In this document: positions 125 through 52,141 of the stretch, in pieces
Position numbering within the stretch: the stretch's first letter is position 1
Layout of the letters: each line of letters starts with the position of its first letter
Source: Escherichia phage BF17
Length of the DNA stretch: 64,000 bases
Sequence record: MW822008.1
Strand: one strand, 5' to 3'
The notes under the pieces: generated by a model
The model's database searches: none
The model's input: only the letters and a program-made list of their open reading frames with translations
What the model was told of the DNA's origin: nothing
Made by a program: the position numbers and the translations under genes

Positions 125-568
125 ATGACAGTACTGCACCGATTGAAGAAGGTTAAGCATCCAGTTGTATATGAGGACTGGAAACGACAGAAGTTGCTGG
201 GTGATTTTTATTACCCAAAATCTAAAGTTCTTGCGAATTCAAGATGTACATATTTCAAACATAATGATAAAGATACAGTATTTGTTGAAATGGGTTTCAA
301 TCCATCAAATACAATGTTCAGCACTAACCAAACATTTTACAAATTTCATATCCAAAAAGATTCATTTTCTATCATGATTTTAAAACTTTTAGTTGAAGAT
401 CTGCTATACCGTGGTGAACGTGTTCCTTTATCATTAGTGGATATTCCTTATAATAATTTAGAGGAAATGTACTTCCAACAGTTGACAGTACAAGAAAACT
501 TCGGTATGATAGGACTTCAAGAGTTAGAGATGATTAAGCAAATTCGTGATATCTACTTTAAGGAGTAA
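125..568 (+). CDS. hypothetical protein (EE-x-F-Q motif family)
   Basis: 147-aa ORF; C-terminal EEMYFQQLTV motif shared with >=11 other ORFs in window. Confidence 0.6.
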   Translation: MTVLHRLKKVKHPVVYEDWKRQKLLGDFYYPKSKVLANSRCTYFKHNDKDTVFVEMGFNPSNTMFSTNQTFYKFHIQKDSFSIMILKLLVEDLLYRGERVPLSLVDIPYNNLEEMYFQQLTVQENFGMIGLQELEMIKQIRDIYFKE

Positions 569-570
569 CT

Positions 571-714
571 ATGCCAGTACGTAACAGTACTTCACGCTTT
601 ACGCTTCAACAGAAAGCAGATCTTTTGAATATGGCAAACAAAGATTCTAATTTTCACTATCTAGTACTCGGTGGTTCAGTTGAAAAGATTGACCTACGTG
701 AGTGTATGAAATAA
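571..714 (+). CDS. small hypothetical protein (47 aa)
   Basis: ATG 7 nt after AAGGAG; below ORF-track size cutoff; tightly packed with neighbours. Confidence 0.4.
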   Translation: MPVRNSTSRFTLQQKADLLNMANKDSNFHYLVLGGSVEKIDLRECMK

Positions 715-727
715 CAAAGGGGATAAA

Positions 728-898
728 ATGAGCCTACGTGAATCATGGGAACAATTTAAAGAAGAGATTGGTTATCGTGGTGTTAAGATTGAACCAATCA
801 ATCGTACTGAAAGCATCAAAGCTAGTACTAATGGCACTACCTATGATCGTTATGATGAAAAGTATGGTTTACATTCTAAACCAAAGGATACTGAATAA
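728..898 (+). CDS. small hypothetical protein (56 aa)
   Basis: ATG preceded by AAAGGGGA; stop overlaps next start (TAATG). Confidence 0.4.
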   Translation: MSLRESWEQFKEEIGYRGVKIEPINRTESIKASTNGTTYDRYDEKYGLHSKPKDTE

Positions 899-1041
899 TG
901 GTGTATACTAACATTTTTACTGGTATTATGCGTAAGTTTGTTAATGGTATTGGATATGTATCCAATGACAACGGTAGTACATGGGTAAAAAATAATACGT
1001 CAGAATCTTTAGTGAAAAGTCTTCCGTATTATAAAGCTTGA
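898..1041 (+). CDS. small hypothetical protein (47 aa)
   Basis: ATG overlapping upstream stop; open frame to TGA at 1039-1041. Confidence 0.35.
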   Translation: MVYTNIFTGIMRKFVNGIGYVSNDNGSTWVKNNTSESLVKSLPYYKA

Positions 1042-1066
1042 CACATGAAAATGGAGTATGTATAAT
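1038..1066 (+). promoter_or_regulatory. sigma70-like promoter TTGACA-N17-TATAAT
   Basis: TTGACA 1038-1043, TATAAT 1061-1066, upstream of ORF at 1084. Confidence 0.55.
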
Positions 1067-1083
1067 ACTCCTATATTAATCAA

Positions 1084-1671
1084 ATGAGGATATACGAAAT
1101 GGCTGGTGTTGATAAAATTTGTGAATTCAGTGGCGATTATGAAGGTTACGAAATGTACAAGTCCAAGCGTAATCACATTCAAGTTCTGTCAAAGTACCGT
1201 AAAGAATTCCGAGGACACAAAGCAACATTGTATGTTTTTGAGAATGGATATTCTGAAGTTTTCACAAGTGGTGGGTATAGTACAGCTAACATGGCACATA
1301 TCAACCCAAACCCAACTGAAGATGATTGGAATAGTGGTAACGCTTTTCGTATTTCAATTTTGAATAAAATGAATCGTTACGACCGTTATTGTACATTCTT
1401 TGAAAATATTTCAGAATACAAGCAAGCATTAAAGAAATATAATCAACGCTTACTAATGAATTATGATTACATTCTTCATGTTCCTACTGTTCCAGGTCAG
1501 GTTAATGGTCTGTATACGAACAGTACACATGATTTAACTGCGGTGAAGCGTCGCCTCAAACGTATGTTGGGTTGTGGTAATTTAACAATCAAGGTTATGC
1601 GTAATGAATCAATGTATAACTTTTTAAATGTACTACACTACACATTGAAGGATAATAATGGAAACGATTAA
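1084..1671 (+). CDS. hypothetical protein
   Basis: 195-aa ORF with GAGG RBS and upstream promoter. Confidence 0.65.
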   Translation: MRIYEMAGVDKICEFSGDYEGYEMYKSKRNHIQVLSKYRKEFRGHKATLYVFENGYSEVFTSGGYSTANMAHINPNPTEDDWNSGNAFRISILNKMNRYDRYCTFFENISEYKQALKKYNQRLLMNYDYILHVPTVPGQVNGLYTNSTHDLTAVKRRLKRMLGCGNLTIKVMRNESMYNFLNVLHYTLKDNNGND

Positions 1672-1855
1672 GTTTATGTTTGAGGTGTTTGTTGCATTCA
1701 TCTTATGTGCTGTATCTATTGCTATTGCTTTAATCCCAGTAATCGTTTACCAAGTTAATGGTGGTACAGACCCAACAGTTGATCTGTTTCTTCGTTGCGT
1801 GGGATTCTGCATATGGTTGGCGATGTTTATGTACTATATGCATCGTGAGGATTGA
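1658..1855 (+). CDS. small hydrophobic membrane protein
   Basis: 65-aa ORF, strongly hydrophobic; start overlaps upstream stop. Confidence 0.5.
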   Translation: METIKFMFEVFVAFILCAVSIAIALIPVIVYQVNGGTDPTVDLFLRCVGFCIWLAMFMYYMHRED

Positions 1856-2688
1856 TTATGTCATTGGAAAAAGTAATTATTTCTGAATTCCGAAAGTACA
1901 TCATTGATTGTGATAGAGATATACAGCGTAAGTTCAATGAGTATCTTGACAAATATCCATATTTGATGTTTAATCCATTTGAAACTCAATCCGATGTTAA
2001 TCTTGGATTTTACATTGGGTTTACACAACGAATTCTACAACAATATGAGATGAAACAGCCAGAGGTTTGGGTAGAAACTGATTCGAATGAGACGAATGTT
2101 TTTTATCTGTACTCTTATTATGCTGAAATTGTTAGTTCAATGACGCTAGAAGGGTATCTATTCGTCAAAACATCTGATATTGAAAAAATATACATAGAAC
2201 CTGTATCTTTGGATATGGTTGCCCAGCTTCCAACAGTCCAATATTTGGATGCAAATGAGTTGACATATTCGGTGTTTGAGTACCTTAACCGAGACGATTT
2301 AACTCAAGAAATTGAGAATATGGTTTCAAAATATACCACAACTCTTATATCTAATGGTTCACTTAGAATAGAACTGATTTACGACGATACTAGTACTAAT
2401 GCAGTACGAGGAACTCGAATTGGAAAAGTTACTATACGTGTTGTCCACAATGATGTAGTACTTGGTTATATTTCGAAACGTGGTCATGACTTGTGTTTGA
2501 TTAACACATATGTTATTGAACGAAAAGAATGGAACGATTTAATGCAAAAAATCGTAGACGGAAGTGGAATTCGTGATATAATGTGTAATGAGGTAGTGAC
2601 GATGAATCCTGACATTGACTGTGATGTATATTTCCCAGTTCCTGGATTTACTCTACGTAATTTTGGTACATTAAAGGGTACAAAATGA
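1852..2688 (+). CDS. hypothetical protein
   Basis: 278-aa ORF, ATGA overlap with upstream gene. Confidence 0.7.
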   Translation: MIMSLEKVIISEFRKYIIDCDRDIQRKFNEYLDKYPYLMFNPFETQSDVNLGFYIGFTQRILQQYEMKQPEVWVETDSNETNVFYLYSYYAEIVSSMTLEGYLFVKTSDIEKIYIEPVSLDMVAQLPTVQYLDANELTYSVFEYLNRDDLTQEIENMVSKYTTTLISNGSLRIELIYDDTSTNAVRGTRIGKVTIRVVHNDVVLGYISKRGHDLCLINTYVIERKEWNDLMQKIVDGSGIRDIMCNEVVTMNPDIDCDVYFPVPGFTLRNFGTLKGTK

Positions 2689-2975
2689 AAATTTTAGAAG
2701 TCTTACTTGAAAAGGATGCATCCGGCACTCTTTATGTTGGTAATGAGTTCAGTCCTGATCCAATTGATATGATGCAGCGTATTCAAACACTGACCCAATC
2801 AATTTCAGTTAAACAACCTTTCCTAAAAGAATTGGAAATTCACTGCGATAAAGATATGGAACAACATGATAATGTTATTTCTGATATCAAAAGTCTATTG
2901 ACAAAGAATGGATATGTGGAGTATAATCCTTCTATCGTAATCGTTATCCCTGACTTTATGAAAGGAACATTGTAA
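2685..2975 (+). CDS. hypothetical protein
   Basis: 96-aa ORF, ATGA overlap. Confidence 0.6.
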   Translation: MKILEVLLEKDASGTLYVGNEFSPDPIDMMQRIQTLTQSISVKQPFLKELEIHCDKDMEQHDNVISDIKSLLTKNGYVEYNPSIVIVIPDFMKGTL

Positions 2976-3244
2976 TGACTAAAGAAGAAATGAAATCTCG
3001 CCTAAGCGAACTTAAGAAAGAACGAAAACTAGTCCGTTTGGACTGGGACATTCTTAACAAAAAAGATGAGCAATCATATGCTAACTGGAGTTCCGATAAA
3101 GTTCGCAATGACCGTTCCAAAGAAGACGCTAAACAGTTTATGGCATTGACCAAACGTTTATCTTCACTGAATAGTGAAATTACAGGTCTTCAAAAGGAAA
3201 TTATTTCAATTCTTCAAGTGGAGATCAACTCACTGTATGAATAA
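2975..3244 (+). CDS. hypothetical protein (K/E-rich helical)
   Basis: 89-aa ORF, start overlaps upstream stop. Confidence 0.6.
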   Translation: MTKEEMKSRLSELKKERKLVRLDWDILNKKDEQSYANWSSDKVRNDRSKEDAKQFMALTKRLSSLNSEITGLQKEIISILQVEINSLYE

Positions 3245-3530
3245 ACATGAAGTGATTCATTTTGATGGTAAGATTTATGTACCAAACAATGATAGTACTG
3301 AATCTTATTATCTAATCAATGCAATTATGTCAGAAACACAAACATGTTGCCGTCAGCGTCCAGGTGAGTATGAGTTCAGTCAGACCATTGGTTATTATCG
3401 TTATACTGAACTTGATAAATTTACAATCGATTCTAAAAAAGTTATTGACGTTCTCACGAAGAACGGATATAATGAATCCGAATCAAACGAAACAGAGTTA
3501 CCAGTCGTGAAATTTGTTCTAAAAAAATAA
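3237..3530 (+). CDS. hypothetical protein
   Basis: ORF track 3174-3530 trimmed to ATG at 3237 overlapping upstream stop. Confidence 0.5.
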   Translation: MNKHEVIHFDGKIYVPNNDSTESYYLINAIMSETQTCCRQRPGEYEFSQTIGYYRYTELDKFTIDSKKVIDVLTKNGYNESESNETELPVVKFVLKK

Positions 3531-3558
3531 TTAATTTTTGGGACAACGCTGAAAAGCA

Positions 3559-3567
3559 TGATATAAT
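3559..3567 (+). promoter_or_regulatory. extended -10 promoter element TGaTATAAT
   Basis: TG at 3559-3560, TATAAT 3562-3567; weak -35. Confidence 0.4.
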
Positions 3568-3651
3568 GTATATTATCGGCAGATGTAAAAATGCAAACCA
3601 TTCCTCAATGATGAGGGTTTTTCATAAAAAAGAAATAAAAGGGTATTAAAA

Positions 3652-3861
3652 ATGGCTAAAGAAACTAACGCACAAGTACTAGATATCACCGACTTCGACC
3701 GCACTGTGAACTACATTCAGTTCCAGATTCATCAAGCTGAAGAAGCTCTCGCAGTATTCCACGGTACTGGTGCAAGGCCAATCCGTTTTGCTCATCTAAT
3801 TGCATGGAAGAAAAGTCTACAAGAAGAACTTTCTGAACTGCGTAAAGCAAACCGTAAGTAA
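3652..3861 (+). CDS. hypothetical protein
   Basis: 69-aa ORF flanked by promoter upstream and hairpin+T-run downstream. Confidence 0.6.
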   Translation: MAKETNAQVLDITDFDRTVNYIQFQIHQAEEALAVFHGTGARPIRFAHLIAWKKSLQEELSELRKANRK

Positions 3862-3868
3862 TTGATTT

Positions 3869-3899
3869 CCCGCCTCATCAATGTTGATGGGGCTTTTTT
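3869..3899 (+). terminator. intrinsic terminator hairpin + T-run
   Basis: GCCTCATCAA...TTGATGGGGC stem followed by TTTTTT. Confidence 0.55.
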
Positions 3900-3926
3900 A
3901 ATAAAATACAAACTGAGGATATATTA

Positions 3927-4433
3927 ATGAGTGTTGAATATTGGTTTTTGTTTATATGTCTTGGTACACTAGTACTGATTACATTGGGCTTAATCTTCAA
4001 TACGGTAATCAGTGGTAGTAATTACTTCAAGTCCTTTCAACTTCTAATGTCAGCTATGCAGTACAGTGACGAGGCAGAAGAAACCACTACGTTGATTTTG
4101 AATAAACTTGAAGCTAACTTACTGGTTGCTAAAATTTCTTCGTGTAATACAAATATTGTATTTTATGCATCACCCGTGGACATTAATGGGTACGAAATGA
4201 GTTACCAGCCAGCCGTTGCTGAAATTTTTATTGGTTCTAAGTATTATGCATATGGATATATCCGAAAGTATTATACTGAAGCAAAAGCCGAGCTAACAAA
4301 GAAACGACCGTCAATTAAGACATTAAAGCGTATCATCGCACTAGAAAAGAAACTACGAGGTGATGTGACAAAAAATGATTCACCCACTGTAGTAAATACA
4401 AAGAAAAAAAATAACGTAGTGGAGTTGGATTAA
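3927..4433 (+). CDS. hypothetical membrane-anchored protein
   Basis: 168-aa ORF, N-terminal hydrophobic helix; GAGGA RBS. Confidence 0.65.
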   Translation: MSVEYWFLFICLGTLVLITLGLIFNTVISGSNYFKSFQLLMSAMQYSDEAEETTTLILNKLEANLLVAKISSCNTNIVFYASPVDINGYEMSYQPAVAEIFIGSKYYAYGYIRKYYTEAKAELTKKRPSIKTLKRIIALEKKLRGDVTKNDSPTVVNTKKKNNVVELD

Positions 4434-4738
4434 TGGACGCAGATAAATCAAACAGTATTCTTATTGATGTACAAACGAAGTTATTAGATGTTATGGAAAT
4501 CATCAAAGATTTACCACAAGGATATCAGTTTAAAGTTCGTGAAATGTTATCTTGTGCAGAAACGGTTGTGTCTATGTACAATGATGTGCAGCATGGAATT
4601 ATCCCTGAAATTCTTCAAGATGGTCTAAATATTAACACAAAGATTCCAGCACAAGAGCCTGAAGAGGTTGTTCAGCCTGAACCAGAACCTCCTATACGTA
4701 AAGTACTGGATCTGTCTGGCATCAAAATTAACATCTAA
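4433..4738 (+). CDS. hypothetical protein
   Basis: 101-aa ORF, start overlaps upstream stop. Confidence 0.6.
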   Translation: MDADKSNSILIDVQTKLLDVMEIIKDLPQGYQFKVREMLSCAETVVSMYNDVQHGIIPEILQDGLNINTKIPAQEPEEVVQPEPEPPIRKVLDLSGIKINI

Positions 4739-4760
4739 AATACATTCAATAGGAGAAGTA

Positions 4761-4910: not shown

Positions 4911-4920
4911 ACATTACTTT

Positions 4921-4950
4921 ATACCCAGTCTAGTACTGGGTATTTTTTTA
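4921..4950 (+). terminator. intrinsic terminator
   Basis: ATACCCAGT / ACTGGGTAT inverted repeat followed by TTTTTTT. Confidence 0.65.
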
Positions 4951-4960
4951 AGGAAATAAA

Positions 4961-5353
4961 ATGACTGAATCAGAACTACATGAAATGATAGATTTCATTT
5001 ATGAAATGATACAAGATAAAAATAACATCAATACAATTATTTCTGGTCCAAGACAAATTGGTAATCAAATGACATATTCTTTATCTTTATGGATAAAACA
5101 GAACTACAAAGTTGATTGTTTGTATTTCCGTCCTGATATTGATGCTTATTATTTTGTCAATCATGATGCATTAATGAAACCAAATAAGCGTCCAGTTGAT
5201 GATACCTTTGTGACACACCCATTTTACCTGGCTGATTCCGAAGAAGATGAGTTTCAAAAGAACACAACGTTAAGCCCAGGTGAAATTTGCATCCCTTACA
5301 CACTAAAAGATAAAATGATTTACATCACAGAAGTTATGAAAACATGCTGGTAA
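4961..5353 (+). CDS. hypothetical protein (EE-x-F-Q motif family)
   Basis: 130-aa ORF; SEEDEFQKNTTL motif. Confidence 0.65.
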   Translation: MTESELHEMIDFIYEMIQDKNNINTIISGPRQIGNQMTYSLSLWIKQNYKVDCLYFRPDIDAYYFVNHDALMKPNKRPVDDTFVTHPFYLADSEEDEFQKNTTLSPGEICIPYTLKDKMIYITEVMKTCW

Positions 5354-5401: not shown

Positions 5402-5620
5402 ATGAAATTTATTAATTTTGATATTTCTAAGGTCAAAGAATTATTTGTAAGAAATGCAGTTTATGATATCATGTTACATAACGGTACTGTACAAGAAGAT
5501 GTTGTATTGTTTTCGTTTGATGGTGAAAATCTCGAAACTATATATAAATTCAGCAACTTAGATGGTGACTTTTGGGAAACCAGTGCTGTTAAAATGTATA
5601 GAATTAAAAAGGAGCATTAA
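5402..5620 (+). CDS. hypothetical protein
   Basis: ORF track 5384-5620 trimmed to ATG after AGGAGGA RBS. Confidence 0.6.
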   Translation: MKFINFDISKVKELFVRNAVYDIMLHNGTVQEDVVLFSFDGENLETIYKFSNLDGDFWETSAVKMYRIKKEH

Positions 5621-5621: not shown

Positions 5622-6110
5622 ATGCCAATTCGTGGTGTACCAGAACCATTAATGGAAGTTATTAAGCATGTTCGCATTGGAGATCGAGAAGTTAATCTTC
5701 GCCGTAATAACATTTTTTACTTTAAAACTTCAGAAATGAGTTCTGTACAGATTGTCATTGGTACATCTATTAAGATTACTCGTGTACTTGATGGTAGTAC
5801 TGACTTCGTTGAATATAATGTACTTACTAATAAAGTAACGCATATATATAAATGGAGTGGGTATAAAACTATTAAGTATGAATTTGACTTAGCTAGAACT
5901 GAAGAAGAACGATTTATGCTGAGTACTATCAATCCAGCAAACTATCCTGACCTTGATGCATTTTTGCTAATTTTAAAATTGTATAATGAAGCAAATCAGA
6001 AAGCCAAAGATTATGATAGAATCATGTATGAACGCCGAAAAGAACGTGCACAAAAAAGTTATGATCTGTATGATAGCCCATACGTGAAATATAGTAAGGG
6101 GTCGAAATGA
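5622..6110 (+). CDS. hypothetical protein (EE-x-F-Q motif family)
   Basis: ORF track 5562-6110 trimmed to ATG after GGAG RBS; TEEERFMLST motif. Confidence 0.6.
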   Translation: MPIRGVPEPLMEVIKHVRIGDREVNLRRNNIFYFKTSEMSSVQIVIGTSIKITRVLDGSTDFVEYNVLTNKVTHIYKWSGYKTIKYEFDLARTEEERFMLSTINPANYPDLDAFLLILKLYNEANQKAKDYDRIMYERRKERAQKSYDLYDSPYVKYSKGSK

Positions 6111-6511
6111 ATAAAGAAGTTCAAATTATCATAACTCCACCTATACAAAGTCTGGATGTATCCATTAGTGATTTTTTGGAAAAATACTATGAATGGTTTA
6201 ATGAAGATTCAGTAATTTATAACCATTCATTACCTGATGGTTTCGTTGAGCTTATTGAATTAAATGCCAAATCACTATACTTCTGTGTTGAATACAATGA
6301 TTATATGACAGATGAAGCATATCGTTTTCGTTGTACATTGTATCCTAACCATTTTTCCATTGGTTATAAAGACTATCAGTACTGCACCACAAACTATAGT
6401 GTAGAGGAAGAATTTCAGTACAATTTACTTTATCCTGATTTAGATTATACGATTGCAGTACTGTTGACTAAAATCATGGATTTTTATAAAGATAAATATA
6501 ATGCAGCCTAA
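6107..6511 (+). CDS. hypothetical protein (EE-x-F-Q motif family)
   Basis: 134-aa ORF; VEEEFQYNLL motif; ATGA overlap. Confidence 0.65.
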   Translation: MNKEVQIIITPPIQSLDVSISDFLEKYYEWFNEDSVIYNHSLPDGFVELIELNAKSLYFCVEYNDYMTDEAYRFRCTLYPNHFSIGYKDYQYCTTNYSVEEEFQYNLLYPDLDYTIAVLLTKIMDFYKDKYNAA

Positions 6512-6682: not shown

Positions 6683-6853
6683 ATGACACACAAAGAATGG
6701 TTAGATGAACTAAAATTTAAACATAATCCTTTTGGTTTTGGTATACGCCAAGGTCATTATGATGTGTTAAAAGATAAACAACTTTTCAAATCATTTGTAC
6801 TTGATGAGGATAGTAATCACTGGTACATCTATGAGCTTGCAATTAGGAAATAG
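6683..6853 (+). CDS. small protein, MTH-x-EW family (56 aa)
   Basis: Translates MTHKEWLDELKF..., N-terminus matches three tandem small ORFs at 8188-8674. Confidence 0.5.
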   Translation: MTHKEWLDELKFKHNPFGFGIRQGHYDVLKDKQLFKSFVLDEDSNHWYIYELAIRK

Positions 6854-7950: not shown

Positions 7951-8080
<130 letters not shown>

Positions 8081-8187: not shown

Positions 8188-8348
<161 letters not shown>

Positions 8349-8352
<4 letters not shown>

Positions 8353-8509
8353 CACATGAAGAATGGATGAATGACATTAATTTTAGATATTCGGGTATCG
8401 GTAAATGGCTAAAGTATCATTGGGAATTCATTTCAGAGCCACATCTGTATGATAAACTTATCAACGATCCAGCATATGAAATGTACTTAATTGAACTACT
8501 GGTACGAAT

Positions 8510-8513
<4 letters not shown>
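8349..8513 (+). CDS. small protein, MTH-x-EW family, tandem copy 2 (54 aa)
   Basis: Near-identical 5' half to copy 1; ATGA overlaps at both ends. Confidence 0.5.
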
Positions 8514-8681
<168 letters not shown>

Positions 8682-8682: not shown

Positions 8683-9136
<454 letters not shown>

Positions 9137-9875: not shown

Positions 9876-10685
<810 letters not shown>

Positions 10686-11917: not shown

Positions 11918-12000
<83 letters not shown>

Positions 12001-12003: not shown

Positions 12004-12076
<73 letters not shown>

Positions 12077-12093
12077 CAAAATAAAGGTACACT

Positions 12094-12510
12094 ATGAAAT
12101 ACAACATTGTCAAAATGGTGAACTACGTATTAAAAAACAACGCATGGTCACTGCATGATGTACAATTAGAAGATATTGGTGAAGTTAGAGTTTTTTGCTA
12201 TGATGGCGATTTGAACGAAACCACTGATTTGAGTAAATGTTTTAATATTTTTCTTGGTTATGAAATCAATAATCATTTTTATTCATTTGATGTGTATTTT
12301 GAACGAGTTAAAATCAGAATTGCTAATGTAAATAGTGATTATTATGACACTAGAATTGAATTGAATTTTGACGATATTGATACTGAAGAAAAATTCTTTC
12401 AGTACTGTCTCGTAAACGATCCAAATGGATTGACATTTGAGGACATTAAAGCTATACTTATAGTTCAAAGATTAATTCCAGAAGAGGTTATAAATCCCTT
12501 TAATGACTAG
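12094..12510 (+). CDS. hypothetical protein (EE-x-F-Q motif family), tandem paralog A
   Basis: 138-aa ORF; TEEKFFQYCLVND...RLI C-terminus similar to next ORF. Confidence 0.65.
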   Translation: MKYNIVKMVNYVLKNNAWSLHDVQLEDIGEVRVFCYDGDLNETTDLSKCFNIFLGYEINNHFYSFDVYFERVKIRIANVNSDYYDTRIELNFDDIDTEEKFFQYCLVNDPNGLTFEDIKAILIVQRLIPEEVINPFND

Positions 12511-12862
12511 TTTAATAACTCGTATAATGCAAGATGTTCGTAAGAATCTTAATACTGGTAATTTTGATGATCCTAACATAAAAATATTATGTTATGATGG
12601 ATTCACCCTAGTACATCCATCAGAATCTAATAATTTATACATAGTATATACTTCTCCTAATCTTTTGTATCGATTTGATTTATATACTACAATGGCTAAG
12701 ATAACATTAGGTGTTTCTAAGGAGCCAATTTTTATAGCAGTACGTGATTTTGAGTACACAGAAGAGTCATTATTCCAGTACTCAATGGTAAATGACATTG
12801 GTGACTTGACATTAGAAGAGATAAATGTTATAGTTGGTATGTGTCGTTTGATTAATCCATAA
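12503..12862 (+). CDS. hypothetical protein (EE-x-F-Q motif family), tandem paralog B
   Basis: 119-aa ORF; TEESLFQYSMVND...RLI. Confidence 0.65.
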   Translation: MTSLITRIMQDVRKNLNTGNFDDPNIKILCYDGFTLVHPSESNNLYIVYTSPNLLYRFDLYTTMAKITLGVSKEPIFIAVRDFEYTEESLFQYSMVNDIGDLTLEEINVIVGMCRLINP

Positions 12863-13510: not shown

Positions 13511-13540
13511 TTGACATTTTTACTTCTACTGTGTTATACT
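13511..13540 (+). promoter_or_regulatory. sigma70-like promoter TTGACA-N18-TATACT
   Basis: TTGACA 13511-13516, TATACT 13535-13540. Confidence 0.45.
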
Positions 13541-13543
13541 TAA

Positions 13544-13572
13544 GGCTGATTCATTATGAATCGGCCTTTTTT
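13544..13572 (+). terminator. hairpin + T-run immediately downstream of promoter (terminator or attenuator)
   Basis: GGCTGATTCAT / ATGAATCGGCC stem then TTTTTTCTTG. Confidence 0.5.
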
Positions 13573-13590
13573 CTTGTGGGGATTAATGTA

Positions 13591-14007
13591 ATGAATAAAG
13601 AAGTTATTAGTTTAATGGATGAGTATATCAACCAAACATATCGTTTTATATTTTTTAATGCATTTGAGTCCAGAACAACGTATTATTCTGGTGAATATGA
13701 GATAATAACTGGATCATTTCTTAACGGATACATGGAGTTTTTAGAACAAAGCGATAATGTGTTCATTTCCATATCTGAAAAACATGGTAATGATTATGTT
13801 ATTGATATGTGGCCTAATAAAGTAGAGATTGATACCACGCACAAAATCGTAATTGATGTGGATGAATCGTTGTATGATTTAACTGAAGATATGTACATGC
13901 AACTAAATTTCGTATACGATCTAACTAACATAAGTTATTCTAATCTAAGTAAATTATTTTATATTTGTGGTGTACTACATAAAAACGTACAACAAAATAA
14001 AGGATAA
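13591..14007 (+). CDS. hypothetical protein
   Basis: ORF track 13531-14007 trimmed to ATG 13591. Confidence 0.55.
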   Translation: MNKEVISLMDEYINQTYRFIFFNAFESRTTYYSGEYEIITGSFLNGYMEFLEQSDNVFISISEKHGNDYVIDMWPNKVEIDTTHKIVIDVDESLYDLTEDMYMQLNFVYDLTNISYSNLSKLFYICGVLHKNVQQNKG

Positions 14008-14079
14008 ACATTTAAATGTTGACAATTTACAACATAAATGGTATCTTTGAAATTGCCAGAACCCTACGAGGAAGATGAT

Positions 14080-14487
14080 ATGGTCAAAATTTTAAGTGAC
14101 AATGCAGTTGATATTGTCATTGATGTACTTGAAAACAGTAATACATTTGAGAAGAAACACAGTACTGTATACTTCGGTAAAGATTGCTGGTTGAGCTATA
14201 TATCTGATAAATCGTTTGTAATTCGTGTTGAAACGGGTGATATTGGATTTACGGTACATGCGGCACATACCAAAACTGATAAACAAATCACTGTTATTGC
14301 TGACACGCCAAGTATCTGGGATAGAATTGATGATTGTGAACACTACACGTCAACATTCTATGATACAGAAGAAGAACATTTCATGGATAGTACTGTTAAA
14401 GAATTAGCTATTCCATTTAAACTTATGAAAGCAGCAAGAGATTTTATTTTAAAATACAAAAAAATAGGAGTTGATGATGCAATTTAA
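14080..14487 (+). CDS. hypothetical protein (EE-x-F-Q motif family)
   Basis: ORF track 14038-14487; internal ATG 14080 follows GAGGA RBS; TEEEHFMDSTV motif. Confidence 0.6.
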   Translation: MVKILSDNAVDIVIDVLENSNTFEKKHSTVYFGKDCWLSYISDKSFVIRVETGDIGFTVHAAHTKTDKQITVIADTPSIWDRIDDCEHYTSTFYDTEEEHFMDSTVKELAIPFKLMKAARDFILKYKKIGVDDAI

Positions 14488-28411: not shown

Positions 28412-28612
28412 ATGTTTACTTTATATCTCGCAGTAGTTCTCACCAATGGTGAAATCACTCGTACTATTGGTGAAGGTGTATATAAAACACCAGACCAGTG
28501 CTACTCTGCTACTCATTGGCCTCGCGATAGTGGGGATGAAACTCGCACTGAATTCAAATGCATGAAAGTAAAAGGTGATTTTGTTAACCTTAAGGTTATC
28601 GAGGCGAAATAA
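28412..28612 (+). CDS. hypothetical protein
   Basis: ORF track 28355-28612 trimmed to ATG 28412. Confidence 0.5.
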   Translation: MFTLYLAVVLTNGEITRTIGEGVYKTPDQCYSATHWPRDSGDETRTEFKCMKVKGDFVNLKVIEAK

Positions 28613-29127
28613 TGGATATTAATGAGTTGTTGATCTTATTGTTTAATCGTGGAAATGATGTAAGACGTTCTGAATATCAAGACAAAATTCACATTGAAAC
28701 TGATAAATGTTATGGTAAAACAACTCATGAGATTTTGAAGCCAAATGGCAAACGATATGCCGATGTATGTTTTCATGAACGAAGTGATGGTAGTGAAATA
28801 ATCAGTACTGAAATTGTGTTTTATGATAGATCCTCGGCAGGTTCGTATGAAATAGAACTTATATATTGTCCTGGTTCAGAAACACACAATAAACGTCAGA
28901 TATTATATGATGTTTATTCACCTCCAGGTGTAGCTGAATATTTTGTTATTGATTACAGTACTGAAGAAAGTGTGTTTCAACAGAGCTTGATTCATAACTT
29001 CCAGTTGAATGATCCAAATGTACCAAAGTTGTTCAAACTACTCGATACTATCGATGTTGATTTTGAATTTGTTATGTGCATTAGAACTTCCTTGATCGAT
29101 GAATTTATGGAACTACTTAATATATGA
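28612..29127 (+). CDS. hypothetical protein (EE-x-F-Q motif family)
   Basis: 171-aa ORF; STEESVFQQSLI motif. Confidence 0.65.
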   Translation: MDINELLILLFNRGNDVRRSEYQDKIHIETDKCYGKTTHEILKPNGKRYADVCFHERSDGSEIISTEIVFYDRSSAGSYEIELIYCPGSETHNKRQILYDVYSPPGVAEYFVIDYSTEESVFQQSLIHNFQLNDPNVPKLFKLLDTIDVDFEFVMCIRTSLIDEFMELLNI

Positions 29128-34523: not shown

Positions 34524-35096
34524 ATGAATAGAAAAGGTAAGTTCAAAGTATCAAAGAAGAACAAAAGTTCTAGATTTAGACCTATAACTTTAACTTTTAA
34601 GGCTAAAGAAGAATTAACTGCACTTAGTAAAAAGATAATTTCATCTAAGATTAAAGTATCATACGTAAATTCGGTAAAATTTCAGAAGGTTAAACCACAA
34701 GACAAACTCATTTCACTTATATTTAAACGTAATGATTTTGAGATATTAGTAGATGATTATAGAGCCTATAATGCTGGATTCATTCATGTCACTTGTAATA
34801 CCGAACTAACTGAGTTGGAACATTTGACATGTATCATAAGTGTAGATAACGGTGTGGTGAAGTACAATTTTTTACATTTTACCAATATCAATAATGGAAT
34901 GGGTGTACAATCCAGACCTATAGTACCTACATGTGATGTGACTAATTTAGCAAAGCTCAATGAAGAAGAATATTTTCAAGAAAGCATTGTAACTGAGCAT
35001 TTAGATGCTATAATAGCAACTTACAAAGAATGCATATGGGTTTTGAATGCGATAAAGCCCAAATTGTGTTTAATGAATGTCGTTCGTGATTTATAA
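34524..35096 (+). CDS. hypothetical protein (EE-x-F-Q motif family)
   Basis: 190-aa ORF; NEEEYFQESIV motif. Confidence 0.65.
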   Translation: MNRKGKFKVSKKNKSSRFRPITLTFKAKEELTALSKKIISSKIKVSYVNSVKFQKVKPQDKLISLIFKRNDFEILVDDYRAYNAGFIHVTCNTELTELEHLTCIISVDNGVVKYNFLHFTNINNGMGVQSRPIVPTCDVTNLAKLNEEEYFQESIVTEHLDAIIATYKECIWVLNAIKPKLCLMNVVRDL

Positions 35097-46946: not shown

Positions 46947-46974
46947 TATTTCATCAACTGATGAGGATAACGAA

Positions 46975-47745
46975 ATGACCAGAGAAGCACGTAGCATTCA
47001 AATTCAGAAAAACTTCAACTCCATGATGGTTGCTCTTGAGTGTTTGCTCGACGATAACAGTACTGTAAAAAGTATGGTTGTCAGCGGTGCACCTGGTGTT
47101 GGTAAGACTTACACCCTGTCACAACGCCTCCAGAAAGCTCATGACGCAGCAGAATGGAACGTAGCCACTATCAGTGGTAAAATGACTACTCTTGCTCTGT
47201 ACGAAGTTCTGTACAAGAATCGTCATAGCACCAACGTATTAGTACTGGATGATATGGACAGCATCTTTGATTCAGAAGACGGTATGAACCTGCTCAAAGC
47301 AGTACTGGACAGCGGTAAACGTACTGTGTCTTACATGACTAGCTCTAAGTACTTAACTACCAACGGTATCCCTAACAGCTTTGATTTTAACGGTCGTATC
47401 GTATTCATTACTAACAAAGATTTAGCACTGAATGCTAAAGCTAAAACCAAAATGTCTGCTCACTATGCTGCTCTTATGTCTCGCTCTGTGTATGTTGACT
47501 TACAGATCCAGACTAAAAGCGATATCATGATTCACATTGAAAACGTAATGAACAAGACCAATATCCTGTCAACTAAAGGTGTTAATAGTAATGGTAGCAA
47601 AGCAATCCTGAATTGGATGCTGAAACATGAAGATGCACTTCGTGCTCCTTCACTGCGTATGCCTCTGTTGATTTCAGCAGTATACAACAACAACCCGTAT
47701 GATTGGGAAGAGCAGTGCGAAAACTTGTTCCTTGAGAAAATTTAA
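46975..47745 (+). CDS. P-loop NTPase (AAA-like ATPase)
   Basis: Walker A GAPGVGKT and Walker B-like VLVLDD; 256 aa. Confidence 0.75.
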   Translation: MTREARSIQIQKNFNSMMVALECLLDDNSTVKSMVVSGAPGVGKTYTLSQRLQKAHDAAEWNVATISGKMTTLALYEVLYKNRHSTNVLVLDDMDSIFDSEDGMNLLKAVLDSGKRTVSYMTSSKYLTTNGIPNSFDFNGRIVFITNKDLALNAKAKTKMSAHYAALMSRSVYVDLQIQTKSDIMIHIENVMNKTNILSTKGVNSNGSKAILNWMLKHEDALRAPSLRMPLLISAVYNNNPYDWEEQCENLFLEKI

Positions 47746-47754
47746 TTACATGTA

Positions 47755-47786
47755 TTGACAGTACTACCATAGTGTAGTACTATAAC
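47755..47786 (+). promoter_or_regulatory. promoter-like TTGACA-N17-TACTATAAC
   Basis: Upstream of the 7-gene membrane-protein operon. Confidence 0.45.
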
Positions 47787-47812
47787 TTAATATTCACCAC
47801 CGGAGATACGAT

Positions 47813-48151
47813 ATGCTTGAGTTTTTTAATTCAGATACAATGCTTAGTATTACTTTGATTTATCTGTTTGGTTTTTTCTTTTATCATGCACTAGTTGTAG
47901 TACTATGGTATTTTAAAAAGAAAATCGTTTTCAAACTGTATCCTGATGGAAACATTTCACTACTTCTTTTCACTATTATCCAAGGTATGTTTGCAATTGT
48001 TGGTCTTATCGCACACTTAATTTATTGTGCTAATCCACAGTTGAACTCAATATCACAATATATTGTATTCCTTGGATTACTAATTTGGGTGCTGATATAC
48101 TTGTTTAATCTCATCATCAATGGTAGAGCAAAAATTCGTGGGGACTTCTAA
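47813..48151 (+). CDS. small multi-pass membrane protein, paralog family (cluster B, copy 1)
   Basis: 112-aa; hydrophobic; basic C-terminus RAKIRGDF. Confidence 0.65.
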   Translation: MLEFFNSDTMLSITLIYLFGFFFYHALVVVLWYFKKKIVFKLYPDGNISLLLFTIIQGMFAIVGLIAHLIYCANPQLNSISQYIVFLGLLIWVLIYLFNLIINGRAKIRGDF

Positions 48152-48498
48152 TGTTTGAATCTTATCTTGAGTTTTTAAAGAGTAGTTCTGTTGCACATTC
48201 AATTGCAGGGATTATTCTAACAGGTTATGTAACATTTTGGGTGGTTATGTTTCTAGGATGGTATTTTAAACGACAATTCTATAAGCGTAATGGTGAAGAT
48301 TTTATGAATTCTGTTATTAATCAATCGTTGTTTGCATCAACATTGATAGCATGTATTGTAGCAACACTCACAGGAAAGGTACTGCCAGCATTCTCCGCAG
48401 TTTACGGTACATTGGGTATGATATGTGTAGTTTTTTACTTGACCATTAAACTTTGTTGTGTTATGATTGACCTTCGAAACAAGATACCGGAGGAATGA
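48151..48498 (+). CDS. small multi-pass membrane protein (cluster B, copy 2)
   Basis: C-terminus LRNKIPEE; overlapping start/stop. Confidence 0.65.
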   Translation: MFESYLEFLKSSSVAHSIAGIILTGYVTFWVVMFLGWYFKRQFYKRNGEDFMNSVINQSLFASTLIACIVATLTGKVLPAFSAVYGTLGMICVVFYLTIKLCCVMIDLRNKIPEE

Positions 48499-48833
48499 TG
48501 GAATATTTTTTACACTTACTGCCGTGGTATATGAAAGTTAGTACTATGTACTATATTCTTAGTGCTGGATTCTACTTTCTGATGTGGTTCTTCAAACGAC
48601 CAATTTCAGTATTCATCTCTGATAACATGCTGCAATTAAAATTACACGCATGGTTTTTTATGGCGATGTTTATGCCTATTATTCACTACTCAATGATTAG
48701 TAGAGGGTTCCGTTCCAATGGTGAACCAATTATATTAGTATTCTATTGGGGTTCAACTATTGCATATGTAAGTTTGTTGTTGATCCCAGCCGTTCATAAA
48801 TTACGTGCTAAAGTTCCTGATGCGAGGTACTAA
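48495..48833 (+). CDS. small multi-pass membrane protein (cluster B, copy 3)
   Basis: C-terminus LRAKVPDARY; ATGA overlap. Confidence 0.65.
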   Translation: MMEYFLHLLPWYMKVSTMYYILSAGFYFLMWFFKRPISVFISDNMLQLKLHAWFFMAMFMPIIHYSMISRGFRSNGEPIILVFYWGSTIAYVSLLLIPAVHKLRAKVPDARY

Positions 48834-49147
48834 TGGATATCGTAACATTGATTTACACGCTTTATTCATTCTATTTTATTATGTGTTGGGTTGGATTTTT
48901 ATTTGTATTGAAGATGTTTGATTATGTTGAAAAACAGATAAAAGAATTTTGTATTCCTTTTATTGGGTCAACCATAATTAGTATTACTTGTTTGTATTAT
49001 TTGGTATGTGATCCACCTGTTAATACAGCAATGATTGACTTCATGTTATTACCAACAACAGTTATTTTTTTATGTAGTCTGATGCCACCGATTAGTCGTG
49101 GGCTAACCGAATTTAGACGCAATCAAAAGCGTAAACGAGGGATGTGA
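48833..49147 (+). CDS. small multi-pass membrane protein (cluster B, copy 4)
   Basis: C-terminus RRNQKRKRGM. Confidence 0.65.
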   Translation: MDIVTLIYTLYSFYFIMCWVGFLFVLKMFDYVEKQIKEFCIPFIGSTIISITCLYYLVCDPPVNTAMIDFMLLPTTVIFLCSLMPPISRGLTEFRRNQKRKRGM

Positions 49148-49515
49148 TGGAAATTGCACTTATTATATTAACTGCTATGTTGTTTATTAGTACAATTGTT
49201 ATTATTGGCAAGTTCTTCTGTGTATCCTTCTTGGAAACCGTATACGATGAAATTGCTGATGATTATGAATTACATGCGGGATTTTTTACTACGTATTGGA
49301 TTAGTTTATTACTACTTATCACTGTATGGATTTTACATATATTCAAATGGGGTATGGTAGATGGTGATCCAGTACTGGCAATTATCTGTGTAGTGTTTGG
49401 TCTACTCGGTGGTGCTGTCCATAATCTGATGGTAATTTGGCAAACCGTACAATATGTATTAGTTCCACATTTTCAGAGAATGCACCAAAGCATCAAATAC
49501 CGCAAACGAGGATAA
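49144..49515 (+). CDS. small multi-pass membrane protein (cluster B, copy 5)
   Basis: C-terminus SIKYRKRG. Confidence 0.65.
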   Translation: MMEIALIILTAMLFISTIVIIGKFFCVSFLETVYDEIADDYELHAGFFTTYWISLLLLITVWILHIFKWGMVDGDPVLAIICVVFGLLGGAVHNLMVIWQTVQYVLVPHFQRMHQSIKYRKRG

Positions 49516-49516
49516 C

Positions 49517-49879
49517 ATGAATAATATTGAATTATCTTTTATTGGTCAATTAATGGTAATGGCGTATACATTTATCTTCTCACTGAATGCATTCGTGTGC
49601 ATTGGGAAGTACTTCCATAAGCGACCATTATCAAATATATATGATGTAATACAAAGGAGATATAGTCCAGCATATACTGTGTTGAGTACAGCATTCAATT
49701 TTGGTTTTATTCTAATGCTGGTTGCATTATTAACATCGAGTTCGAATTTTATAACATTTGGTATTATGGTATGTTCACTAACACTGTGTGTGGTTATTCT
49801 CTGTGCATCAGTTGAGTTGATGGCGTGGATGTATAATAAGATTTCCGAAATCCATGAGCGTTTAGGTAAGAGGAACTAA
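49517..49879 (+). CDS. small multi-pass membrane protein (cluster B, copy 6)
   Basis: C-terminus HERLGKRN. Confidence 0.65.
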   Translation: MNNIELSFIGQLMVMAYTFIFSLNAFVCIGKYFHKRPLSNIYDVIQRRYSPAYTVLSTAFNFGFILMLVALLTSSSNFITFGIMVCSLTLCVVILCASVELMAWMYNKISEIHERLGKRN

Positions 49880-49880
49880 A

Positions 49881-50252
49881 ATGAGTTATCGTGAAATATT
49901 TTCGATCATTACTATTATTGTGTTTAGTTTAGGTTCTTTGATTTGGTTATTGTATTACTTCTGTGTAACCCCAGTATATAATATGCTAAATTCAGTTCGC
50001 TCTGATGTTGGTATTGTTTCTTTTATTATCTTCATGGCATATTATATGCTAAGTATCACAGGTTTGGTTTTGGTTGTTATCTTTGACCTTGGACCGAATC
50101 AAGATGGTATGGAGATGTGGGAATTGATAACGATGTTTGCATGTATGATACCTGCATTTGGTGTATGTGCTGGTGTATTTTATGGGTTGTGTAAAGGTGT
50201 AAACTACTTAAAAAATATCCACAATACTATTCGTAAAAAACGTATGTTGTAA
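49881..50252 (+). CDS. small multi-pass membrane protein (cluster B, copy 7)
   Basis: C-terminus IRKKRML. Confidence 0.65.
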   Translation: MSYREIFSIITIIVFSLGSLIWLLYYFCVTPVYNMLNSVRSDVGIVSFIIFMAYYMLSITGLVLVVIFDLGPNQDGMEMWELITMFACMIPAFGVCAGVFYGLCKGVNYLKNIHNTIRKKRML

Positions 50253-50258
50253 TAAAAA

Positions 50259-50283
50259 ATCCAGTACTATAATAGTACTGGAT
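50259..50283. terminator. bidirectional terminator between convergent blocks
   Basis: ATCCAGTACT-ATAAT-AGTACTGGAT palindrome with A/T runs on both sides. Confidence 0.65.
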
Positions 50284-50288
50284 TAATT

Positions 50289-51413
50289 TTAATTATCTAA
50301 GCCACCAATTACACTGAACAGTGTGGTAACGTCTGAACTATTATCTATGTAAGTTCTTCTACCAACATAATATAGTTGTCCTTTTGCTTGAATAAAAGTT
50401 ACGGTCCCTGTATTGAATGTTATAATATCATTGTATGTAATGTCAGGTGGTAGTGCTGCTGATAACGCAGTAACTTTACTTAATGCAGCACTAGTACTAC
50501 CATTTATACCAGCAGCAATACTACCAGTACCATAGAACTTATTATCTTTACCAATGAATACGTTGGCTGATGCTTGTGTAGCTGATGTTATTGCCTTACC
50601 AATTTGGAATGCGGTTCCTATGGTGTATGGTGTGCTCCTGGCTGCGTCTATGCTTTGTGTATATCCATCCCCTAGCTGACCATTAACTTTGTCACCACAT
50701 GAGTATAAAGTACCATTGAGGCTGTATATGATCCCACGGTTAGAGAAGCTAACAGCTTCTGCATTAGTCCATACTGGAGCGGTGTATGAGTTTACACGAC
50801 TAGCAGTAGTTCCTAGTCCTAGTATACCATATGTGTTATCACCACATCCAAACCATTGTCCAGTACTGTTTTGATAGAACACTGAACGTTCTGTTGATTC
50901 CATGCGTACAGCATCCACAGCACCACTTTTAACGAACGAAGTGGATGAGGATGTAGTACCAGTACCCAATGCACCATAAGTGTTTGTACCAATCGCATAG
51001 ATTGATCCTAGTGGTGTCATCACACGTATACAGTTATATCCCAATTGAACTTTACATTCAAATAGGTTGTCCCATATTTCAGGAACAGCAGAAAATAAAT
51101 TTGTAATTTCGAACCATGATGTTGTCGAACCAATTAATCCTATACTGCTTTTGTTTCCTAAAATGAAAACAGTTTTGTCCTTCTTAATTATCCATGATGA
51201 TAGGAAACCTATCTCACAGCTATGAACATTTGATTCTATTTGGGTAATATAATACTTAACTGTGTTATCACCCATGAATGCCGCAGCACCGGATGCAAAA
51301 AGGTTTCCAGTTTGTTTATTTAAAATGTAGTTATTGTTTCCATATACACTAACATCATAAGAACTTTCTTGTTTTTCGTTCCCATAATCAAATAACAATA
51401 CGAAAGGTAACAT
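50289..51413 (-). CDS. RCC1-like repeat protein, MLPF-leader family member 1
   Basis: 374 aa; MLPFVLLFDYGN leader variant; G-x-N-x-x-G-Q-L-G-x-G repeats (GCGDNTYGILGLG, SCGDKVNGQLGDG); GGAG RBS. Confidence 0.8.
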   Translation of the reverse strand: MLPFVLLFDYGNEKQESSYDVSVYGNNNYILNKQTGNLFASGAAAFMGDNTVKYYITQIESNVHSCEIGFLSSWIIKKDKTVFILGNKSSIGLIGSTTSWFEITNLFSAVPEIWDNLFECKVQLGYNCIRVMTPLGSIYAIGTNTYGALGTGTTSSSTSFVKSGAVDAVRMESTERSVFYQNSTGQWFGCGDNTYGILGLGTTASRVNSYTAPVWTNAEAVSFSNRGIIYSLNGTLYSCGDKVNGQLGDGYTQSIDAARSTPYTIGTAFQIGKAITSATQASANVFIGKDNKFYGTGSIAAGINGSTSAALSKVTALSAALPPDITYNDIITFNTGTVTFIQAKGQLYYVGRRTYIDNSSDVTTLFSVIGGLDN

Positions 51414-51490
51414 GATAAAATCTCCTTGTGTTATACTTTATTTAATCATTTTATAATGTACAATTTTACAGCGATTTAATTGAGGTACTC

Positions 51491-52141
51491 ATGAATAAAA
51501 GAAGTAAGTTCTATCAAGAATATTTCACTAAACATAAACGATTCACAAAAAAATACTTTACATCATCCCACCGACCAGTTGCAAGTTACAAACGTCCTAA
51601 TACTAACTATCTTGCTGGTGGCAAGTTTAGTGCAAAGTTCGAATTACTTATGCGTGAAAAGAATATCAAGATGCATTACGCAGAGACGAGAAAAAACTCA
51701 TCAATTATTTGCTCTGATTTTCTTGAGTACGGTTGCTTAACTTATAAATTCAATGATGTATATTTGTATATTGATGTTGATTGTAACAGTACTCTTATGT
51801 TTGAGATTTCAATTCACCCAAATCACAACCGTTATATAAACATTAACTTGATTGATAAAGTACTGATTGGTATATCTAGTACTGATGGTGGTGGATTTGA
51901 ATTTATTGCTTCAAAATATGATGAAGATTTCGTACTTTACCCAGTACTTGATGATGTGAAAGATATTCTCAATTCATTAAAAGGAAGTCAATACAAATTA
52001 TCTGAAGAACAGCTATTTCAGTACTCACTTATTCATGATGATATCGAGATATACTTAGAGTGTGCGAGAATCTTGGAGTATCTTTATAATGAACTAACAA
52101 CAACTGGTAAAGTGACTGCATTCACATTATATAATATGTAA
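51491..52141 (+). CDS. hypothetical protein (EE-x-F-Q motif family)
   Basis: 216-aa plus-strand ORF embedded in the minus-strand array; SEEQLFQYSLI motif. Confidence 0.65.
   Translation: MNKRSKFYQEYFTKHKRFTKKYFTSSHRPVASYKRPNTNYLAGGKFSAKFELLMREKNIKMHYAETRKNSSIICSDFLEYGCLTYKFNDVYLYIDVDCNSTLMFEISIHPNHNRYININLIDKVLIGISSTDGGGFEFIASKYDEDFVLYPVLDDVKDILNSLKGSQYKLSEEQLFQYSLIHDDIEIYLECARILEYLYNELTTTGKVTAFTLYNM

Follow-up and report, generated by a model that had tools for sequence, protein, structure and literature searches.

In a 64,000-nucleotide stretch of the genome of Escherichia phage BF17 (sequence record MW822008.1; the whole stretch is called the window here), 12 small, otherwise dissimilar proteins carry a common motif built around a Phe-Gln pair near their C-termini. 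We found this motif to be the signature of a very large, lineage-specific protein family that, as far as we could find, has not been described as a single family. Its members, for which we use the working name 'FQ-module' proteins of RaK2-like jumbo phages, are defined by the pattern [ST]-[ED]-[ED]-x(1,2)-[FY]-[QM]-x-[SN]-[TL]-[VIL] followed by a helix; 12 open reading frames (ORFs) of the window match this definition strictly and a 13th is recognised by a hidden Markov model (HMM). On balance we favour the view, held with some reserve, that these proteins are a domain family in which a constant C-terminal module is joined to a variable part, and that they would serve as a repertoire of binding proteins made early in infection.

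The motif and the family that it marks

Megablast identified the window as part of a PBECO4/121Q-like jumbo coliphage (genus Asteriusvirus, genomes of about 350 kb). The phages EC.P1, Ecwhy_1 and CMSTMSU are 97-98% identical to the window and PBECO4 is ~90% identical where aligned, the + strand of the window corresponding to the minus (coding) strand of PBECO4 from roughly 220 kb down to 158 kb. A six-frame scan of the window with the core pattern EE.{1,2}F[QM] returned exactly 12 matches, all in frame in ORFs of the + strand, and none across the three minus-strand frames. The matched strings are identical to those of the original prediction, which had placed the motif in at least 12 ORFs. When residues were shuffled 2000 times within the 143 non-overlapping ORFs, the core pattern was expected 0.43 times on average and never occurred more than 4 times, and the longer pattern EE..F[QM]..[STL][VITL] was observed 9 times against 0.015 expected in the same shuffles, so that the motif occurs far above chance. 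The codons used at the conserved motif positions vary synonymously (TTT/TTC 19/17, CAA/CAG 18/18, and Ser as either AGY or TCN), which indicates that the constraint acts on the protein and not on a DNA or RNA element; a DNA-level repeat or recombination signal is ruled out by this variation.

The motif is conserved in position as well as in sequence, since 33-45 residues separate its start from the stop codon in 10 of the 12 copies; in the remaining two this distance is 54 and 69 residues. The C-terminal placement originally claimed is thus correct, and the stated 25-40 further residues describe a range that is in reality slightly wider. Outside the motif the proteins have little in common: pairwise similarity among the 12 is clear solely for one tandem pair, the duplicates at 12094-12510 and 12503-12862 (E=1e-11), both of which belong to phrog_17453. 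Leave-one-out HMMs built among the 12 recovered the omitted member weakly (E from 3e-6 to 0.1). Given this single related pair and the weak recovery, 'otherwise dissimilar' is a fair description of the set, and the lack of HMM or profile-profile signal between the N-terminal halves of the two genomic groups, presented below, agrees with it. An HMM built from the paralogs of PBECO4, when run on the window, recovered all 12 motif-bearing ORFs together with the ORF at 13591-14007 (E=1e-7), whose motif is degenerate, which brings the number of members in the window to 13.

The true size of the family became apparent in the complete genome of PBECO4, which was scanned for the strict motif in ORFs of at least 60 amino acids (aa) and with an iterative HMM at E<1e-3. 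The strict motif was found in 45 ORFs, and the iterative HMM converged on 66 ORFs, which corresponds to 12% of the 551 annotated genes; in both scans every one of these ORFs lay on the coding strand. These genes are arranged in a 38-gene tandem array at 97.8-125.5 kb and a second group of ~20 at 205-226.6 kb, with a few scattered elsewhere; the window covers part of the equivalent of the second group. In the alignment of the 66 PBECO4 sequences, the Phe is conserved in 97%, the Gln in 94%, an upstream Asp in 86%, the Ser in 77% and each of the two Glu residues in 70-74% of members. The mean column identity of the 82-sequence alignment of the family is 9%. From these data the family consensus reads [ST]-E-E-x-[YFL]-F-Q-x-S-[TL]-[VI]-x-D, which opens a conserved C-terminal module of about 40 residues in proteins of ~105-220 aa. 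With 66 members in one genome and further members in the phages RaK2 and XbC2, the motif marks a large and divergent paralogous family, as was originally suspected.

Outside the genus Asteriusvirus, members were found in other RaK2-like phages. A tblastn search with one distant member matched Salmonella phage Munch, Klebsiella phage fENko-Kae01, Pectobacterium phage CBB and Cronobacter phage GAP32, as well as Erwinia phages, RaK2/K64-1 and Xanthomonas phage XbC2, and found no family member in PA5oct-like phages. When the consensus of the HMM was the tblastn query, nothing was matched, which is probably an effect of low-complexity filtering. RaK2 has at least 11 motif-bearing members in a 40-kb stretch (for example, TEESYFQSSLIYD and TEEEFFQQSTIHDF), and the member in XbC2 is clear (TEEWFFQLSTIHDF, E=9e-11). 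Because members are present in RaK2, XbC2, GAP32, CBB, Munch and Erwinia phages, the FQ-module family can be regarded, as judged by sequence, as a hallmark of the RaK2-like group of jumbo phages, whose hosts range from Enterobacterales to Xanthomonas. When a 35-sequence profile was compared by HMMER with 1.84 billion representative proteins, only 44 matches were obtained at E<=1e-3. These were 64-216 aa in length and all single-domain, with no domain fusion among them, and almost all had the extended signature T-E-E-E-[FY]-F-Q-x-S-[LT]-[IV]-x-D-[FIL]-x-x-[LIV]-[TS]-[YF]-E. The ten distant matches that were looked up came from metagenome assemblies, in contigs of up to 361 kb. One metagenome match, a protein of 115 aa, has a canonical C-terminal module, FTEEEFFQQSTIHDFRSVTYEH, that is near-identical to that of a RaK2 member, and an N-terminal part that by eye looks helical and not beta-rich; this protein represents either a truncated or chimeric gene call or a case in which the module is attachable to other domains.

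None of the domain databases treats these proteins as a family. Pfam gave no consistent match for 10 members, for all 82 members or for ten isolated C-terminal modules, NCBIfam gave no match for family members, and a profile search of the PDB sequences gave no match at E<=10. Homologue searches with alignments of 12 and 82 sequences returned 15 and 26 proteins, respectively, all of which belong to the FQ-module family and lack a Pfam domain. In PHROGs the 82 members are spread over 57 groups, all of unknown function. These groups (e.g., phrog_12674, 13866, 9317, 17453 and 24941) hold individual orthologs and small paralog clusters of the family, but unlike the family as defined here, they are not joined by any entry or annotation. 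The family is also not described in the papers on RaK2, CBB, fEgEco12 and Sharanji, in jumbo-phage reviews, in the comparative analysis of Iyer et al. or in the Avs5 paper; the RaK2 paper did report that ~10% of the gene products of that phage are paralogs, the families being left undefined (PMC3622015).

The conserved C-terminal module and the predicted fold

In order to compare the two parts of the proteins separately, sequences were split at the motif and HMMs were built from 34 members of the PBECO4 array that have a recognisable F-Q core, none of them an ortholog of any gene in the window. Of the 13 C-terminal parts from the window, the C-terminal HMM detected 7 at E<1e-3, with values as low as 1e-7, and it ranked 9 above all decoy ORFs. 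The N-terminal HMM placed none of the 13 window N-terminal parts above the decoy ORFs, and comparison of the N-terminal profiles of the two genomic groups by hhalign yielded P=0.73, the same as for reversed controls. Window proteins and their PBECO4 orthologs are 90% identical within the motif, 81% along the C-terminal helix and 71% over the N-terminal part. The residues downstream of the motif, D-[FIL]-x-x-[LIV]-[TS]-[YF]-E and the helix, are conserved together with it. The module of roughly 40 residues at the C-terminus thus appears to be the sole part conserved family-wide, the N-terminal 90-150 residues being not detectably homologous between subgroups.

Each window paralog has an ortholog in PBECO4, which indicates that the copies are old and individually maintained. 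The median identity of these orthologs is 78%, versus 86% for neighbouring genes, a difference that does not support faster evolution of the family (p=0.45).

The structures of two window members were predicted with AlphaFold2. The model of 14080-14487, for which the 12 window paralogs served as the alignment, had a mean predicted local distance difference test (pLDDT) score of 78 and a predicted template modelling (pTM) score of 0.75. It consists of a helix at residues 7-19, seven antiparallel strands over residues 24-92 that are broken by a short helix at 77-80, and then the motif, which forms a short helix at 97-104 with T96 as its N-cap and is followed by a loop and a long helix at 113-131. 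The top pLDDT values in this model, 89-90, were found in the 10-residue blocks from 91 to 120. The model of 12094-12510, made with 35 sequences, reached a pLDDT of 70; its topology is the same, and its motif lies in a helix at 98-107. Both models therefore share a predicted fold composed of an N-terminal helix, a 6-7-stranded antiparallel beta-meander, the short motif helix, a loop and the long C-terminal helix.

In a Foldseek comparison with BFVD, the highest-ranking matches (E from 6e-5) were to uncharacterised proteins encoded by RaK2, CBB, GAP32 and fHe-Yen9. Template modelling (TM) scores normalised to the query were ~0.6 for several of the top matches and lower for others, and the best alignments covered 133-151 columns. 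Comparison with the PDB gave no significant match, and the top of the list was mostly occupied by p32 entries (E 0.18-0.5, TM 0.2-0.33, not significant). The p32/gC1qBP/MAM33 proteins (1p32, 3jv1, 3qv0 and 1yqf), which have an alpha-beta7-alpha-alpha arrangement, resemble the FQ-module model in topology only; none of the 82 members matches Pfam MAM33 (PF02330) at E<=0.01, and we know of no counterpart of the F-Q motif in p32, which forms ring-shaped homotrimers whose acidic surface is asymmetric. The likeness is one of topology and does not make the FQ-module proteins members of the p32/MAM33 family. Similarly, the polo-box and cryptic polo-box domains (4nkb, 4rs6, 5lhx and 8a0k) superpose by their sheet and one helix and by nothing more, have no sequence relation to the family, and are modules of eukaryotic kinases that lack the N-terminal helix and the helix-loop-helix C-terminus of the FQ-module proteins. 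As modelled, the FQ-module fold has no demonstrable relative of solved structure.

Genes, neighbourhood and expression context

The members found in the window are listed in Table 1. The starts used for the genes at 5622 and 14080 in the original prediction agree with full-length PHROG matches, and in the case of 5622 this match is the reason for preferring that start over the longest ORF. For the 13th member, a promoter-like site at 13511-13540 and a strong terminator-like hairpin at 13542-13568 (12 pairs and a T-run), both on the + strand, precede 13591. As this hairpin lies inside the longest ORF, 13531-14007, and directly after the promoter-like site, it supports 13591 as the true start. 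Nine of the 12 motif-bearing window proteins are acidic, with an isoelectric point (pI) of 4.3-4.8, and the median pI of the 82 family members is 4.76. A segment resembling a transmembrane helix was present in 2 of the 82, and the members are thus predicted to be soluble as well as mostly acidic.

Table 1. FQ-module genes and some other features of the window. E-values in the HMM column were obtained with the HMM built from PBECO4 paralogs; motif positions are nucleotide coordinates.
Feature	Position	Strand	Length (aa)	pI	Motif and position	HMM E-value	PHROG	Remarks
Family member	125..568	+	147	8.5	LEEMYFQQLTVQ at 458-493	5e-9	phrog_23719 (full-length match; function unknown)	PBECO4 ortholog 219025-219468, 74% identity
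Family member	4961..5353	+	130	4.7	SEEDEFQKNTTL at 5237-5272	1.8e-5	phrog_32367	PBECO4 ortholog 92% identical
Family member	5622..6110	+	162		TEEERFMLSTIN at 5898-5933	4e-16	phrog_22160 (full-length match)	Longer, basic C-terminal tail; longest ORF would begin at 5562
Family member	6107..6511	+	134	4.3	VEEEFQYNLLYP at 6401-6436	7e-12	phrog_33143	EE-to-FQ spacing shorter by one residue
Family member	8743..9108	+	121	4.8	TEEEYFQTSTVQ at 9001-9036			Leave-one-out E=3e-6; sigma-70-like promoter (11/12) at 8684-8711 just upstream
Family member	9876..10247	+	123	4.4	DEEDEFQKSTVY at 10134-10169	3e-9	phrog_38341	
Family member	12094..12510	+	138	4.4	TEEKFFQYCLVN at 12382-12417		phrog_17453	
Family member	12503..12862	+	119	4.6	TEESLFQYSMVN at 12758-12793	2e-11	phrog_17453	
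13th family member	13591..14007	+	138		TEDMYMQLNFV (degenerate) at 13882-13914	1e-7		
Family member	14080..14487	+	135		TEEEHFMDSTVK at 14365-14400		Full-length match	Longest ORF would begin at 14038
Family member	28612..29127	+	171	4.6	TEESVFQQSLIH at 28960-28995	1.3e-9	phrog_28118	
Family member	34524..35096	+	190	9.3 (basic)	NEEEYFQESIVT at 34959-34994	5e-11		N-terminal part longer; PBECO4 ortholog 84% identical
Family member, longest	51491..52141	+	216		SEEQLFQYSLIH at 52001-52036	9e-7		PBECO4 ortholog 170081-170743, merely 46% identical
tRNA genes (six)	7991-8080, 10279-10368, 10523-10601, 10606-10678, 11924-11997, 12004-12077	+						
MTH(E/K)EW(M/L) mini-family ORFs (four)	6683-6853, 8188-8352, 8349-8513, 8510-8674	+	54-56					

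The window has ~35% GC, and small co-oriented ORFs of the + strand crowd its first 52 kb. The family genes stand in co-oriented tandem arrays that are packed with near-consensus sigma-70 promoters. Using the pattern TTGACA, a spacer of 16-18 nt and TATAAT, we found 36 matches of at least 11/12 on the + strand between 1 and 47 kb and 1 on the minus strand, with 2.5 expected from block shuffles. This corresponds to ~1 promoter per 1.3 kb of the + strand (e.g., at 1038, 2898, 7164, 7309, 8684 and 13511), and several are directly upstream of family genes. Such a density of near-consensus sites suggests that the region undergoes very dense early transcription by the host RNA polymerase. The label 'virion structural protein' is attached to no member in PBECO4 or in the RaK2 stretch that was examined, the virion proteins of RaK2 having been identified by tandem mass spectrometry. 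We consider it unlikely that the family represents T4-type internal proteins that are targeted to the capsid or processed in the prohead, on the indirect grounds that the virion label is absent and the promoters are of the early type.

Scattered between the family genes are six tRNA genes (Ser-tga, Ser-gct, Met, Asn and two Thr-tgt). A separate and unrelated mini-family consists of four ORFs whose products all start with MTH(E/K)EW(M/L); three of these ORFs form a direct tandem with overlapping stop and start codons. On the minus strand, adjoining the FQ-module genes, ten tandem ORFs at 52174-63711 (nine of ~370-400 aa and one of 245 aa) correspond to PBECO4 gp286-gp296, which are RCC1-like 'regulator of chromosome condensation' paralogs and form another big tandem expansion.

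Possible functions of the FQ-module proteins

We consider the most likely role of the FQ-module proteins to be that of a repertoire of binders for host takeover or counter-defence. In this model they would be early cytoplasmic proteins, each combining the constant module with a variable domain. The module would hold the fold together and probably provide a shared surface for interaction or assembly, and the variable, beta-rich part would confer the binding specificity of each paralog. The conservation of a near-invariant Gln and Ser, with nothing else conserved, suggests such a shared interaction or assembly surface, and the Phe of the motif is probably a core anchor. Four points weigh against this interpretation. 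The orthologs are not unusually fast-evolving, which does not fit a simple arms-race picture; early expression is inferred solely from promoter consensus and genomic position; and the two models are of moderate confidence, derive from shallow alignments and are both of window-type members, so that a common N-terminal fold is supported for window-type members alone. Finally, S/T-E-E at the start of a helix is ordinary N-capping chemistry, and part of the conservation could consequently be purely structural, without a common partner.

It is possible, although in our judgement unlikely, that the helix-loop-helix is instead a dedicated docking module, comparable to an F-box or PRANC domain, that tethers about 66 target-binding domains to one machine, candidates for which are the phage ClpA/ClpP-like protease, the sliding clamp and the host RNA polymerase. 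The conservation of the C-terminal module alone, next to N-terminal halves that are not detectably related, is what such a design would produce. The residues E, E, Q, S and F would fall on one face of the motif helix and the variable positions on the opposite face, as judged by helical-wheel reasoning from residue frequencies and not by measurement. The motif is also kept in phages of the distantly related hosts E. coli and Xanthomonas, which fits a partner that is phage-encoded or universal. As to the clamp, the segment Q-x-S-L-[IV] loosely resembles QL[SD]LF, the bacterial clamp-binding motif; however, clamp-binding motifs normally occur in flexible tails, whereas the FQ motif is predicted to be helical and packed.

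With respect to the protease, a Pfam scan of the five annotated proteases of PBECO4 identified a ClpP-like protein, an S77 prohead protease, a ClpA/B-type ATPase and two proteins without a match. The ClpP-family protein is gp105, annotated as 'head maturation protease' (Pfam E=4e-41), and gp539 is a ClpA/ClpB-type ATPase with two AAA+ domains that has homologs across RaK2-like and PA5oct-like phages. The phage thus seems equipped with a Clp-type machine of its own, distinct from gp520, its S77 prohead protease. The occurrence of the ClpP-family protein together with an ATPase conserved across the clade makes an F-box-like adaptor model conceivable, in which the helix-loop-helix, as a phage analogue of the F-box, would plug about 66 recognition domains into one machine, for which the phage ClpA/ClpP-like protease is the most attractive candidate. 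To this idea we assign a lower probability still, and the co-occurrence of Clp proteins and the family reflects only shared ancestry, as the ATPase is also present in PA5oct-like phages, where the tblastn search found no family member. If the idea were true, RaK2-like jumbo phages would possess a programmable repertoire of substrate adaptors by which many host proteins, including defence proteins, could be destroyed or sequestered early in infection.

A further alternative to the binder repertoire is that the invariant polar residues (the upstream Asp, the Glu pair, Gln, Ser and Asp) form a catalytic or small-ligand site, such as a pocket for a metal, nucleotide or signal molecule, which would make the proteins a family of enzymes or 'sponges'. 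Phages are known to make small oligomeric sponges that take up immune signalling molecules, and the conserved positions are more polar than would be usual in a core with a purely structural role. We nevertheless consider this improbable, because 66 copies per genome with hypervariable remainders are atypical of enzymes, Pfam and NCBIfam hold no match, and the Glu residues are replaced in ~30% of members.

The original prediction had also raised the possibility that the motif is a short linear motif or a processing site, and had noted a likeness to 3C/NIa-type protease sites that might be coincidental. The likeness is real in part: as in the TEV (tobacco etch virus)/NIa and 3C sites (E-x-x-Y-x-Q / S,G), the family has E, F and Q at P6, P2 and P1, respectively, and often Y or F at P3, which is Y in 16 of 40 PBECO4 copies. 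It fails at P1', where the same 40 copies have Q9 Y7 L5 E5 N4 M3 G3 K2 R1 A1, that is, G in 3 and S in none, the conserved Ser being at P2'; unlike those sites, the motif has a variable P1' and is predicted to be helical and packed. The suspicion that the resemblance is coincidental is borne out by these frequencies. Three PBECO4 proteins, gp176, gp185 and gp206, read EEMYFQGS, EEGYFQGS and EEEFFQGS, respectively. The first two match the pattern used in the laboratory for TEV protease (E-x-x-Y-x-Q, then G or S), and the third has F at P3. The resemblance looks coincidental, although it could matter when these proteins are purified with TEV-cleavable tags.

We accordingly regard it as very improbable that the motif is a proteolytic processing site, whether of the 3C/NIa type or of the L/I-x-E type recognised by a T4-type prohead protease that would free a C-terminal peptide, or a disordered short linear motif. 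The phage does encode several proteases, including the S77 prohead protease, and copies with E-x-x-Y-x-Q exist. However, both models place the motif in a helix, within the segment of a folded domain that was predicted best, and its conservation extends into the next helix; this speaks against a disordered linear motif and makes cleavage there unlikely. No 3C-like protease was found by Pfam among the five PBECO4 proteases checked, two of which had no match, and the lack of virion annotation and the early-type promoters speak against prohead processing. Chance, composition or a DNA- or RNA-level element, in favour of which it can be said that a ~35% GC genome favours GAA, TTT and CAA codons, has practically no probability in view of the 12 occurrences against 0.43 expected (at most 4 in 2000 shuffles), the lack of matches on the minus-strand frames of the window and the non-coding strand of PBECO4, and the free use of synonymous codons.

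Irrespective of function, about one-eighth of the genes of a 350-kb phage belong to one family that is treated as such by none of Pfam, NCBIfam and PHROGs, and this family makes up much of the 'hypothetical' gene content of Asteriusvirus and RaK2-like phages, several of which are under development for therapy. The near-invariant F-Q pair offers a direct experimental handle, applicable across many paralogs, on the question of a shared partner, and the design of a constant module with a variable domain provides a testable hypothesis for how a phage might handle many host factors at once. Even if the module should be a plain scaffold that carries diverse binders, the family would still be a ready-made natural library of small binding proteins.

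Close parallels to the arrangement that we propose come from large viruses. The ankyrin/PRANC-F-box proteins of poxviruses and the MGF families of African swine fever virus are tandem paralogs that combine a constant docking module with a variable domain. Like the FQ-module proteins, they comprise tens of tandem paralogs with a short conserved terminal module and extreme divergence elsewhere, a likeness that we regard as analogy only; these families, and likewise the zinc ribbon of Bacillus phage G, have another fold and motif and no homology to the FQ-module family. The zinc ribbon of phage G is, as here, a paralog expansion in a jumbo phage, and its ~35 copies were termed 'unprecedented' (Iyer et al. 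2021, PMC7824862); the copy number of the FQ-module family, at about 66, is higher.

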